Source: Antedon mediterranea (taxonomy: Eukaryota > Animalia > Echinodermata). From it: 64,000 bases of DNA. This document shows positions 206 through 64,000 of the stretch, one piece after another. The stretch's first letter is position 1. The number at the start of each line of letters is the position of its first letter. The stretch covers positions 1,510,101-1,574,100 of the forward strand of contig NC_092677.1 of NCBI RefSeq assembly GCF_964355755.1. Reading direction: 5' to 3'. The translations under genes and the position numbers were made by a program. The notes below the pieces were generated by a model that saw only the letters and a list, made by a program, of their open reading frames with translations, was not told the DNA's origin and made no database searches.

Positions 206-774
206 GAAGTTCCAAAAAAAGAGAATGATTGTAATTCAACTGGTCATGTTGTTGGAATGACGTTTGTTGGTGTGCTCATTGGATTCATTATAATTATGTT
301 TGATTGTGGTTTTTATCCTCAGCAAAATAAAGAAGTCACATGCACAGGTAAAGTATAATTCAGAAAGTAGAACCAAAAGCAAAAGTGCTGACTTGAAATG
401 ACCAAAGGTTTAATGAAATACCGCACACTTAAGTAATGGAAACTATTTAAACATGAAATTTGATTTTAAAGGTAGGCCTACCTACATCAAAAAATACCAA
501 CCAATCAGGGGTAAGGATGTTACTTCAACTCTAATTATTCAATTTCACTCATCATAATTATTATTATTACTATTGTCACCAATATATCAATAAAGGTTTA
601 CACGATAATTCTTTTTTTGCATGCACTAAACTGTTGTATTATTTTTAGCAGCAGGCGTATATGACTTATACTGAAGAGACAGATAAAGAAACAAACCACA
701 CATACCAAGATTTACAGAAGAAAGACGATAATCAAGCTGTATATGTAAATGAAGCAAAAAAAGACAAAAAATAA
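206..774 (+). pseudogene. 3' part of Ig-receptor unit 0 (TM exon, microexon, Tyr tail); probably a pseudogene
   Basis: TM exon (about 206-347) is homologous to the other units but has a 4-nt insertion (ttcattataattatgttt) that shifts the frame. Microexon 472-510 carries a GGCCTA insertion. Tail exon 649-774 reads QQAYMTYTEETDKETNHTYQDLQKKDDNQAVYVNEAKKDKK*. The upstream exons lie outside the window. Confidence 0.7.
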
Positions 775-1461
775 TATACATGTTTAAAATAAAAATAAAA
801 TAAATATATTATAATTATTAATGGAATATCATTACTATGGTTTGAAACTACAATCACATACATCTTGATGATTATATTATAGAAATAAAGAGAAATCATA
901 ACCTTGAAAAAGTGTTTTCTTTCTCTTGATTTAACTCTTAACGCGTACAAATTAATAACAAGGAAATGTGATGCTGCAATTTGTTTTGCATTAACTAAAC
1001 AAAATATACAGAAGTACCTAGCCCCAGAATTTATCATACGGTAAATAGGAATATGTGATGTAAAGATGAAAACCATACACATATACTTGAAACATGAAAA
1101 AAAGATAACTAACACGACTTTATTCAAAATTTTATTTCTTGTCTGCTGGCAATAAAACGTGCTTGTATTAGACCAATTTATTCGTTACTTTGAATGTAAT
1201 GTTTGACTGCATTATTGCATTGATAATGACCATTATACCAGCATAAGAAAGAAAATAAACTATACAATTATTCTTTATTAAGAATAAGTCTTTTTGAGGA
1301 GTAGTGATCGTTTAGACGGGAGAGCTTAACAACAGTGAACGTTGAGGGCGTATGTAATTGAATCAACTCGTATTAGGCCTACTTTCATAATCTCACAGAA
1401 CAAGGAAGGACAATTTCGATTTATATTCGATATTCGCTATACTAGTAATTCTGTCTTTGTG

Positions 1462-61000: not shown

Positions 61001-63119
61001 TAATCAAAGGGTTACATGTAAACAAGGTATGTAGACTAGATGCATTGACACTCATAATCAAAGGGTTACATGTAAACAAGGTATGTAGACTAGATGCATT
61101 GACACTCATAATAAAAGGGTTACATGTAAACAAGGTATGTAGACTAGATGCATTGACACTCATAATCAAAGGGTTACATGTAAACAAGGTATGTAGACTA
61201 GATGCATTGACACTCATAATAAAAGGGTTACATGTAAACAAGGTATGTAGACTAGATGCATTGACACCCATAATCAAAGGGTTACATGTAAACAAGGTAT
61301 GTAGACTAGATGCATTGACACTCATAATCAAAGGGTTACATGTAAACAAGGTATGTAGACTAGATGCATTGACACCCATAATCAAAGGGTTACATGTAAA
61401 CAAGGTATGTAGACTAGATACATTGACACTCATAATCAAAGGGTTACATGTAAACAAGGTATGTAGACTAGATGTATTGACACTCATAATCAAAGGGTTA
61501 CATGTAAACAAGGTATGTAGACTAGATGCATTGACACTCATAATCAAAGGGTTACATGTAAACAAGGTATGTAGACTAGATGCATTGACACTCATAATCA
61601 AAGGGTTACATGTAAACAAGGTATGTAGACTAGATGCATTGACACTCATAATCAAAGGGTTACATGTAAACAAGGTATGTAGACTAGATGTATTGACACT
61701 CATAATCAAAGGGTTACATGTAAACAAGGTATGTGAACTAGATGCATTGACACTCATAATCAAAGGGTTACATGTAAACAAGGTATGTAAACTAAATGCC
61801 TTGACACCCATAATCAAAGGGTTACATGTAAACAAGGTATGTAAACTAAATGCATTGACACCCATAATCAAAGGGTTACATGTAAACAAGGTATGTAGAC
61901 TAGATGCATTGACACTCATAATCAAAGGGTTACATGTAAACAAGGTATGTAGACTAGATGCATTGACACTCATAATCAAAGGGTTACATGTAAACAAGGT
62001 ATGTAGACTAGATGCATTGACACTCATAATCAAAGGGTTACATGTAAACAAGGTATGTAGACTAGATGTATTGACACTCATAATCAAAGGGTTACATGTA
62101 AACAAGGTATGTGAACTAGATGCATTGACACTCATAATCAAAGGGTTACATGTAAACAAGGTATGTAAACTAAATGCCTTGACACCCATAATCAAAGGGT
62201 TACATGTAAACAAGGTATGTAGACTAGATGCCTTGACACTCATAATCAAAGGGTTACATGTAAACAAGGTATGTAGACTAGATGCATTGACACTCATAAT
62301 CAAAGGGTTACATGTAAACAAGGTATGTAGACTAGATGCATTGACACTCATAATCAAAGGGTTACATGTAAACAAGGTATGTAGACTAGATGCATTGACA
62401 CTCATAATCAAAGGGTTACATGTAAACAAGGTATGTAGACTAGATGTATTGACACTCATAATCAAAGGGTTACATGTAAACAAGGTATGTAGACTAGATA
62501 CATTGACACTCATAATCAAAGGGTTACATGTAAACAAGGTATGTAGACTAGATGCATTGACACTCATAATCAAAGGGTTACATGTAAACAAGGTATGTAG
62601 ACTAGATGTATTGACACTCATAATCAAAGGGTTACATGTAAACAAGGTATGTGAACTAGATGTATTGACACTCATAATCGAGGTGTTACTTGTTAACAAG
62701 GAATGATTCTGAAAATATAGATTTGTATTCTTTAAAAAAAATTTGATTTCAGAATATTCATCAAAATAATATTAATAATTAACTTGAAAATTATTACTTT
62801 CATGTTGAACCAAATAATACACAATTGGTATAAATACCTTTAGTCACGTTTCGTTGACATACTGTCAACTTCTTCAAACTAATACCAATTTTGTATGTAT
62901 TTTTTGGTTCAACATCATTATTGTAAACATGTTTAAAACACATGGTAACAGTTAGCCTTCTGTATTAATTGTTTAGTTTTAAGTACAGAGGTTCCAACGA
63001 GTGAGGGTGTATGTAATTCAACTGGTCTTGTTGTTGGAATGACGTTTGTTGGTGTGCTCATTGGATTCATTATCTGTTTGATTGTGGGTTTTATTATCAT
63101 CAGCAAAATAAGAAATTGA
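52086..63119 (+). CDS. Ig-superfamily receptor unit 12: leader-V(class D)-I-Ig-like-EGF-TM with a stop just after the TM
   Basis: Exons 52086-52140 ([18 protein letters not shown]), 52433-52762 (V), 57712-58014 (I-set), 58151-58372 (short Ig-like, [12 protein letters not shown]), 58867-58974 ([35 protein letters not shown]), 62977-63119 (TM then TGA). Downstream tail exons (about 63243-63263 and 63411-63539) are decayed. Confidence 0.65.
53271..57638 (+). mobile_element. Non-autonomous Ty3/Gypsy-like LTR retrotransposon
   Basis: Two apparently identical 507-bp LTRs (53271-53777, 57132-57638; TG...GA) and a TTAC target duplication. PBS tggcgacgaggatgggat (53780-53797) is complementary to the 3' end of tRNA-Ser(GCT). 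A purine tract precedes the 3' LTR. Confidence 0.92.
54425..56902 (+). CDS. Gag (two CCHC knuckles)-aspartic protease ORF with collapsed pol remnants
   Basis: [14 protein letters not shown] and [14 protein letters not shown] zinc knuckles and an FDTGAE protease motif. No YxDD RT core or DDE integrase core is visible. Confidence 0.88.
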   Translation: MAEEPAEDQASMQGMMQALTDVLQGLRVQQAPPPVKIAKYRGSTKADGDLSLKEWLDDFQSYANHYNLTGKAKAQSLLDHLAGSAKEEILCREGNVREDYDQVVTVLKSLFGPIETVPSLTREFHNRNQKDVESLADFSRVLMRLYTKMVKAAAVEEDKDALKRLRDYTLKERFVHGAKEGWVRRELRRIEMQCKDKTFLEMREEVLEFFKDEEPRHQARVCEVSMEHSVEARRVEEPALKEEIAALKNDVAMLTKSVQSLINIQSADMERAKELKCYNCGKKGHAKTDCTEETLCFNCKGRGHYSRNCPEKPKEKEAKGPGTKRMSTTPMENTELVDRLVAKSPCGDVEIGGIMLGCIFDTGAEASIIPSSLYHDKLKKNLGELQPASGIFLNVIGVGGIEIPIKGYIEVPIEVNGQNLMGSFLVVSDQSCTQKDTKYPLVIGCNILRHLVNSPIQSSKDVVPAIRKYKIILASEEDKMLLASSKVMNDGDVHNKCADALSRCPSNTCVNSSELKSDLNVIASCLMTKVEGGSIEVNSVVPTVLPSFSHEELSDMQKNEDVFSKGIIDVGRCAVISHQIKVTEGPLIRFPYRRINPSLIPRIAVPLHAVTTGMTNKQTGKAAVFKTEDEQKEAANREAARHDGRTTDFKLEVGNRVLLKRNAFTGRHKLSDKFQEVTHVIIDMNEEQDIYEVRPAMGGISKWVNRRQLHLDPRGQESDVLEDHLPIFVSDENSEGSEEEDDEGDALLQLVFTPSVENKEIDNMIVSVENKEIDNMITSVENKEIENQVKNIEDRDKGLRRSSRLNKGKHGNPCHLPTSAVGVHD
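58958..62703 (+). repeat. 54-bp minisatellite, about 69 copies, derived from the EGF exon 3' end and splice donor
   Basis: The unit is gggttacatgtaaacaaggtatgtagactagatgcattgacactcataatcaaa. Variant positions recur with a 1674-bp (31-unit) period. Confidence 0.95.
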
Positions 63120-64000
63120 AAGTTACAGGTGAAGTATGATTTAGACAGCAAGAGTATAGGAATAAAATGACCAAATGAAATACCGCATACTTTTGGTAAT
63201 GGAAAAGTATATTAATATTTAATATGATGTTTTATTTTAAAGGCACCGACATCGAAAATCAGGGTAAGGATGCTATACATTAATTATTCACTCTACTCAT
63301 CAACATCATCATCATTATTATTTTTACTATTGTCACCAATATCGCCAATAAACGTTTACACTATTTTCATTCTTCATTATCCATGCAATAAACTTCTGTA
63401 TTGTTTTTAGTTGCAAGAGTATATGACTTATACTGGAGAGACAGATAACGAAACAAACCACACATACCAAGATTTACAGAAGAAAGACGATAATTAAGCT
63501 GTATATGTAAATGTTTAAGCAAAGAAGGACAACAAATAATATACATGTTTAAAATAAAATAAGTATATTATTATAATCAATAGAATGATTGCAATGGTTT
63601 GAAACTACAATCACATACCTCTTGTTGATTGTTTTTATAGAAATAGAAGAAGTGTTTTCTTTCATTTTCTATAATAAAAATGAAATGTAAATGCTGCAAT
63701 GTATCATCATTATCAACAACACAACCTATAATAGTGAAATAATCTACCAACGGTATAACGCAACAGTAAAGATCAAATTCGTAATGTAATGTAAAAATTA
63801 AAACCATATATATACTTGCAAAATATAAAAATAAGATTAATATAATTGTATTTCTTGCTTTGATTTTTTGGAAATAAAACGTACTTGGTTGTAGACCGAC
63901 TTTAATTTCTTTCATTTGAATTAAATGTATTAATGCATATATATATATATACGGACTATACCAGCATAAGAAGAAAAATACTACAAAAAAACTATACACA

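Follow-up and report, generated by a model that had tools for sequence, protein, structure and literature searches.

Teleost NITR, DICP and LITR and chicken CHIR are diversified clusters of V or V-I immunoglobulin (Ig) receptors with activating, inhibitory and secreted forms, and the activating forms typically use a charged transmembrane (TM) residue together with an adaptor chain. Activating and inhibitory Ig receptors that form pairs with matched binding domains have been found mainly in vertebrates, as described in the excerpted text of PMC5112662, and invertebrate Ig families with immunoreceptor tyrosine-based inhibitory or activation motifs (ITIM, ITAM) are known from the colonial Hydractinia and Botryllus. 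The echinoderm class concerned here, the crinoids, is largely understudied for immunity according to the excerpted review PMC13673367. We analyzed a 64-kb stretch of DNA from the feather star Antedon mediterranea, designated the window, which carries a tandem array of V-I receptor units (designated U and a number) with V exons of four classes, A to D. Judged from predicted exons and database models, the window is likely the activating arm of a crinoid family of paired (activating/inhibitory) innate immune receptors that works like CEACAM1 and CEACAM3.

Similar V domains on different signaling tails were found in RefSeq models of genes outside the window, namely in the pair P0027 (XP_071958242.1) and P0028 (XP_071959084.1) and in partial pairs in the B class and in the crinoid Anneissia japonica. 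P0028 has a window-type tail. The two proteins share 102 of 105 V residues and 77 of 96 I residues, and their TM and tail are unrelated; the protein-level identity of 97% for V versus 80% for I fits gene conversion limited to the V exon. The V domain of XP_071958242/243 (P0027) belongs to class A, and that of U1 is identical to it at 84 of 105 positions. The P0027 tail contains two ITIMs and one immunoreceptor tyrosine-based switch motif (ITSM), and three such motifs were reached by 0.0003 of 20,000 shuffles. The class B gene P0005/P0025 has the same ITIM-type TM as P0027 and a short tail, and the V domain of P0025 matches that of tail-bearing P0006 at 91 of 110 residues and that of U8 at 85 of 110. 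In Anneissia, the P0176 tail contains one ITIM and one ITSM (two motifs were reached by 0.034 of shuffles), and its V domain matches Anneissia P0040 at 90 of 113 residues but Antedon P0025 at only 59 of 111 (clade 100/99 in the tree). The P0040 model ends without a tail, and its TM is of the window type (16 bits, versus at most 4 for P0027, P0025 and P0176). Similar V domains on opposite tails, closest within a species, are the mark by which paired receptors are recognized in the excerpted PMC5112662, and the crinoid pairs point to a paired-receptor reading.

The same models would also arise if the family were real and its ITIM partner an annotation chimera, in which V-I exons of the family were joined to the TM and tail of a neighboring gene. 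RefSeq models can err here (P0004 begins with an upstream TM exon), and an RNA joint to ITIM-type exons was not seen in the contigs. However, the ITIM-type TM is shared by one gene from each of two V classes, for which three and two isoform sequences are listed, and the Anneissia ITIM/ITSM tail ends in the same terminal ETTYSS motif, which leaves a chimera very improbable.

The window-type tail contains the motifs YMxY and YxxL and, nine residues on, YVNV. The arrangement YxxL-x9-YVNV was present in all six intact units and was reached by 0.005 of shuffles, and Anneissia P0180 and the distant Antedon proteins P0009 and P0018 retain these three tyrosines at 38-40% identity. The tail fits the definitions of ITAM-like YxxL/M/V and Grb2-type YxN motifs used for Xenopus Ceacams in the excerpted text of PMC5112662. 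The TM core is uncharged, with D (U5) or R (U9) at the outer edge only, and contains one or two GxxxG motifs; together with the stalk cysteine that precedes it, this suggests a receptor dimer. Fixed signaling had been proposed in a first-pass annotation made from the sequence alone, and this holds inside the window only. Across the family, RefSeq includes tail-bearing, ITIM/ITSM-tailed, short-tailed and TM-less forms, and the latter three indicate that signaling is two-state.

Self-alignment, blastn and tblastn of the 64-kb window identified 13 V-exon, 12 TM-exon and 11 tail-exon copies on the + strand. All 13 V-exon coordinates and classes A to D of the first-pass annotation were recovered by blastn, tblastn and trees, as was their single strand. 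The count of about 13 units had to be lowered to 11 V-bearing units, since the V exons at 39034, 41337 and 42705 can be read in frame as a single three-V gene, rather than as three units; this splicing is a prediction from exon phase alone. Six units (U1, U2, U5, U6, U8 and U9) are open all the way from the leader to the tail, U14 has a stop directly after the TM, and U3, U4, U7 and U12 are broken; 5 of the 11 V-bearing units are thus broken or truncated, in agreement with the earlier estimate that about half are pseudogenes. Splice sites and phases indicated a unit plan of leader, V exon (phase 1-1), I-set exon, 27-nt Thr/Ser-rich stalk microexon, TM exon, 33-nt cytoplasmic microexon and tail exon. 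A microexon had been noticed before, and the 27-nt stalk microexon bears this out; the second, 33-nt microexon between the TM and tail exons (8 clean copies) had been overlooked and is bridged by a contig of run X9. Pfam V-set matched all eight V exons scanned, six of them at or above the curated cut-off, and Pfam I-set matched both I exons scanned. Frame and both cysteines are intact in 10 of the 13 V exons. Copies of the module find each other at E values of 1e-26 to 1e-62, which excludes chance. The units and their exons are as follows.

Class A V exons at 2224, 9630, 14976, 19945, 27713 and 45918, + strand.
Class B V exons at 24033, 31418, 39034, 41337 and 42705, + strand.
Class C V exon at 6522, + strand.
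Class D V exon at 52433, + strand.
207..775, + strand: U0, TM exon with a 4-nt insertion and frameshift, and tail exon; the 5' part precedes the window.
1462..4442, + strand: U1, open, class A; leader 1462-1501, V 2224-2550, I 3073-3363, stalk microexon 3603-3629, TM 3863-3999 (alternative acceptor 3851), cytoplasmic microexon 4129-4161, tail 4313/4319-4442.
5883..8483, + strand: U2, open, class C; leader 5883-5928, V 6522-6854, I 7028-7315, microexon 7636-7662, TM 7920-8056, microexon 8189-8221, tail 8354/8360-8483.
9498..13875, + strand: U3, pseudogene, class A; leader, V and tail frameshifted, repeat of about 2 kb inserted in the V-I intron.
14858..16506, + strand: U4, pseudogene, class A; start codon absent, V frameshift, stops in I, TM decayed.
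17499..22614, + strand: U5, open, class A V; V 19945-20271, I 20829-21113, microexon 21383-21406, TM 22060-22196, microexon 22316-22348, tail 22491-22614.
23787..25732, + strand: U6, open, class B; leader 23787-23835, V 24033-24359, I 24463-24753, microexon 25012-25038, TM 25196-25335, microexon 25444-25476, tail 25609-25732.
26790..30267, + strand: U7, remnant; leader broken (26790-26823), fragment of V from 27713, TM decayed (near 30150).
31194..37634, + strand: U8, open, class B; leader 31194-31242, V 31418-31753, I 31883-32173, incomplete second copy of I at 32225, intron of 4.7 kb filled with repeats, microexon 36895-36921, TM 37086-37222, microexon 37346-37378, tail 37511-37634.
38708..44195, + strand: U9, open, class B, three V; leader 38708-38762, V 39034-39375, I 39956-40246, microexon, V 41337-41678, microexon, V 42705-43046, microexon, TM 43655-43791, microexon 43918-43950, tail 44100-44195.
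45482..48198, + strand: U12, pseudogene, class A; V 45918-46238 intact, I and TM frameshifted.
49364..49491, + strand: U13, orphan tail exon left by a partial module duplication.
52086..63540, + strand: U14, class D; leader 52086-52140, V 52433-52762, I 57712-58014, third Ig-like exon 58151-58372, EGF exon 58867-58974.
U14 module copy, + strand: TM 62977/62989-63128 with a stop just past the helix, tail 63411-63540 with stops.

The U9 tail is shortened and keeps all three tyrosine motifs. The leader of U5 is B-type and lies 2.4 kb upstream of its class A V exon, and its assignment is uncertain. Decayed look-alikes of the leader assigned to U12 were found in eight spacers (5033, 9046, 14408, 23027, 26326, 38237, 45489 and 48742), with up to two leader remnants per spacer, and RefSeq P0072 fuses one such remnant to the following leader. 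Cassette splicing from a shared leader was rejected, because every unit has its own leader or leader remnant. The I domains of U2 (7028-7315) and U3 (12459-12746) and of RefSeq P0010 and P0072 lack the B-strand cysteine, which leaves the F-strand cysteine unpaired. A second in-frame acceptor lies 12 nt before the TM exon (3851, 7908, 13327, 22048, 43643 and 62977) and is used in run X9 and in RefSeq isoforms; the tail exon likewise has tandem acceptors. Inverted-repeat elements lie at 10162-12221 in the U3 intron (with 16-bp subterminal arrays), at 21408-21703 at the donor of the U5 microexon (a short element), and, as a 0.8-kb element in two opposite orientations, at 26843-27655 and 34985-35788.

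Divergence was assessed in 15 pairs among the six intact genes, with saturated pairs left out of the mean synonymous divergence (dS) of V. Amino-acid identity was 0.40 for V, 0.60 for I and 0.85 for the TM and cytoplasmic exons, and the corresponding dS values were 1.31, 0.49 and 0.20. Because silent sites show the same gradient, the module is younger than the V lineages that carry it, and these comparisons indicate that one young module is spread over old ectodomains. With a dS of 0.20 and a TM nonsynonymous-to-synonymous ratio (omega) of about 0.7, the similarity of the module reflects mostly youth and not strong constraint. Module introns are 80-84% identical (0.78-0.81 matches per base versus 0.57-0.59 when shuffled) and the first 450 nt of 3' flank 75%; the V-I intron matches about as well as shuffled sequence (0.65 versus 0.645). 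The first-pass annotation was right that divergence is far greater among V exons than among tails or module introns. It overstated the module as almost invariant, as identity over the TM and cytoplasmic exons is 85% for amino acids and 90% for nucleotides, and its conserved 3' flank of about 1 kb reaches the promoter and leader exon of the next unit, the leader marking its end. In the trees, the split between A/C/D and B contains members of both genera and predates them (100/100), and the window modules form a shallow group together with three RefSeq tails.

One-ratio models on a grid yielded omega values of 0.8 for A-class V, 0.4 for B-class V, 0.5 for I, 0.7 for TM and 0.3 for the cytoplasmic exons. 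The ranges reach 1 for A-class V and TM and lie below 0.6 for B-class V and I, and by these models the B-class V and I exons are under purifying selection. These values bear on whether the array is mostly the product of neutral tandem turnover, with a module homogenized by recombination and one or two working genes. The broken or truncated units (5 of 11), the orphan tail, the heavy repeat load and the omega of 0.7-0.8 for A-class V and TM, with ranges up to 1, are consistent with such turnover. It is quite unlikely nonetheless, given the low omega of B-class V and I, the retention of tail tyrosines across genera, the transcription of several classes, and the 10 of 13 V exons with frame and both cysteines.

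U14 had been described as a V-I-TM unit, and its exons are instead arranged as V-I-Ig3-EGF-TM. Its spliced product is A. mediterranea RefSeq XP_071958272.1 (386 of 386 residues). The module of U14 is 92% identical to that of U9. The V-I-Ig3-EGF ectodomain clusters with Anneissia P0177 (47% identity; 98/94 in the tree), which has its own TM and tail. The module copy starts about 200 bases after the end of a 54-bp tandem array, and a retroelement with long terminal repeats (LTRs) lies in the V-I intron.

53271..57638, + strand: LTR retroelement in the U14 V-I intron, with identical 507-bp LTRs and a gag-protease frame (PNMA, zf-CCHC, weak RVP).
58954..62705, + strand: 54-bp tandem array of 69.5 copies, each with the last 21 nt of the EGF exon, the splice donor and the start of the intron.

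The array puts 69 GT donor copies into one intron, at the junction with the grafted module. The identical LTRs indicate a recent insertion, and most of pol is apparently absent from the element. Anneissia P0151, a U14 relative, and P0180, a window-type receptor, both lie on contigs of 273,287 bases, which suggests the same neighborhood in both genera. We tentatively suggest a wider scenario, in which a CEACAM-style decoy system arose in crinoids independently of vertebrates: a few ITIM receptors would be shadowed by expanding activating mimics with V exons refreshed by conversion, and the TM-tail part would be a portable cassette grafted on unrelated surface genes, with its capture by U14 still in progress.

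In profile searches, crinoid proteins (A. mediterranea and Anneissia japonica) scored far above all others. The A. mediterranea models, including the U14 protein, lie on one contig of 28,587,047 bases, with one model on another contig; the Antedon models compared above for pairing are all on the former. No model identical to U1, U2, U5, U6, U8 or U9 was among the 18 and 23 matches listed, and the best exon matches were 64-95%; from the identity of U14, the window is the RefSeq chromosome or a close haplotype. RefSeq carries the family genes only under scattered, inconsistent automatic names, taken from adhesion molecules. Searches of ESM Atlas, PDB sequences and folds retrieved generic Ig matches only (JAM, NCAM, Robo and DIP; 18-28% identity in the fold search), and a search with a single V exon as query returned no match among near-length targets. 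The AlphaFold model of P0028 has two Ig domains and one helix, with a mean predicted local distance difference test score of 62 and 80-91 for the V domain. P0080, P0131 and P0152, on the same A. mediterranea contig, form a further V-I-Ig-TM family with long cytoplasmic regions, in which, by eye, there seem to be additional Ig-like repeats and a C-terminal domain with many Asp-box motifs like those of sialidases.

Spliced transcripts of the family were identified in contigs of run X9, taken as RNA by guess, and of the unlabeled run X8, both judged spliced from GT..AG joints absent in runs X1 and X5. V-I joints were bridged at 6854>7028 (U2; X9 and X8) and 2550>3073 (U1; X8), and contigs of these runs also join I via the 27-nt microexon to TM, and TM via the 33-nt microexon to the tail. 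Transcripts were seen for several V classes. Loose ends of run X8 at 3346 and 3355 show I exons joined by splicing to downstream exons that do not resemble the stalk microexon, which suggests more ectodomain or tail types in the organism of that run.

The database matches of the family also allow for a diversified adhesion or cell-identity code (JAM, nectin or Dpr/DIP-like) in development, nerves or regeneration, with tyrosine tails for cytoskeletal signaling. The V-I-TM layout, the generic similarity to JAM, NCAM, Robo and DIP, the adhesion-derived RefSeq names and the one-to-one Anneissia relative of the U14 ectodomain, with its own tail, would all suit such a code. Yet the names are inconsistent and the identities low (18-28%), about half of the units are dead, and species-specific V matching of ITIM and non-ITIM genes is unexpected in a wiring code, and we regard this explanation as unlikely. 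One-to-one orthology with JAM, NCAM, lachesin or nectin was not found in the database matches and family trees; the similarity is of generic Ig type, and the family is multi-copy and lineage-specific. The earlier suggestion of a lineage-specific recognition-receptor family, and not clear orthologs of a conserved adhesion family, is accordingly supported, as the best named matches are crinoid paralogs with inconsistent automatic names.

In the paired-receptor reading, the ligand of the inhibitory members would be of self or microbial origin, and these members would recruit phosphatases of the SHP type, by analogy with vertebrate pathways. Gene conversion would keep the V exon of activating members matched to that of inhibitory ones, and a microbe engaging the inhibitory receptor would thereby also trigger the activating one. 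The window tail would need no adaptor chain and would itself signal by way of Src/Syk-type kinases (YxxL) and Grb2 (YxN), and the activating member probably works as a dimer, given the stalk cysteine and GxxxG motifs. The presence of the module on different ectodomains, and the many dead copies, would result from unequal crossing-over and conversion. We infer the immune setting of the family.

Several observations weigh against this reading. The ITIM-type TM and tail exons are absent from the window and are known from RefSeq models. Full ITIM-tailed genes were found once per species, P0025 and P0040 being without such tails, and the I-to-ITIM junction was not confirmed in the RNA contigs, where, among the loose ends listed, one from X9 is compatible with the P0025 junction but equally with a donor left unspliced. 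Because the contig sequences do not equal the window exons (45 letters in 263 differ in one example), they show transcripts of the family, not of these exact genes; nor do they separate alleles from paralogs. The tail did not match a strict ITAM (YxxL/I-x6-12-YxxL/I), its second motif being YxxV at a spacing of 9, and the second tail motif of P0018 fits the ITIM pattern. None of the V sets had an omega above 1 under the one-ratio models (best 0.4-0.8), the TM omega of 0.7 is as high as that of V, and the tail range (0.15-0.8) overlaps. In favor of the reading, within-class V differences are higher on the BC, CC'C'' and FG segments (p = 0.07 for A, 0.019 for B and 0.005 for C), but this is weak evidence, as loops are more variable in any Ig domain.

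Sea-urchin immune-genome studies reportedly mention V-type Ig genes, and an earlier description of a family of this kind in sea urchins may exist. Crinoid or echinoderm paired Ig receptors were not described in the matches listed in our search of openly available papers, and no echinoderm ITIM/ITAM receptor was found in the excerpted texts of reviews on the invertebrate IgSF (PMC11999971) and on immunity in sea cucumbers (PMC13673367). As far as the literature was searched, this is a real, undescribed family. If the paired-receptor reading is true, the design would have arisen in, or would predate, a deuterostome line outside the chordates, and would not depend on colony fusion. The named pair XP_071958242/XP_071959084 would make inhibitory checkpoint signaling and the decoy idea approachable in an echinoderm.

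The array was also compared with allorecognition complexes such as Hydractinia Alr, in which self is marked by homophilic binding of polymorphic V domains. Should the window represent a second haplotype of the RefSeq chromosome, the V differences of 70-95% seen between counterparts would amount to very high allelic polymorphism. Feather stars, however, are solitary, and near-identical V domains on opposite tails are better explained by pairing. Alr resembles the crinoid locus, in the excerpted preprint (bioRxiv 10.1101/2022.03.04.482883), as an invertebrate tandem cluster of V and I-set domains with one domain per exon, pseudogenes, exon shuffling and ITAM-like and ITIM tails. By the same text, Alr has an Fn3-like spacer, its tails diverge more than its ectodomains, and allorecognition was shown genetically, whereas the crinoid V-I units lack Fn3 and their tails are least divergent. 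Cnidarian-named proteins were absent among the listed matches of the family searches. The allorecognition reading, raised in the first-pass annotation, found no support here and is distinctly unlikely.

Botryllus FcoR is similar in being an invertebrate deuterostome IgV family with ITIM or hemITAM/core tyrosine motifs, gene-content variation and birth and death, and differs in having an IgV-sushi-C2-C2 layout beside a fester partner (excerpted PMC12065747), whereas the crinoid layout is V-I, has no such partner gene, and sushi was not matched in the exons scanned. Unlike activating NITR, DICP, LITR and CHIR forms, the crinoid receptors have an uncharged TM core and tyrosines in their own tail, and the closest proteins are crinoid. 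CEACAM V domains lack the disulfide, whereas the crinoid V domain keeps both cysteines. Sequence orthology with CEACAM was not found either (best CEACAM match 43 bits versus 119-616 for crinoid proteins), and in the crinoid cluster many V classes share one activating-type module. By the features compared, the family is not CEACAM, Alr, FcoR, NITR or CHIR. The likeness to CEACAM1/CEACAM3 and the Xenopus paired Ceacams, as given in the excerpted PMC5112662, lies in the arrangement: an N-terminal V domain followed by further Ig domains, ITIM/ITSM and ITAM-like members, TM-less members and an activating tail with its own tyrosines, including YxN Grb2 sites. Paired V domains are 80-93% identical in those Ceacams and 77-97% identical in the crinoid family.

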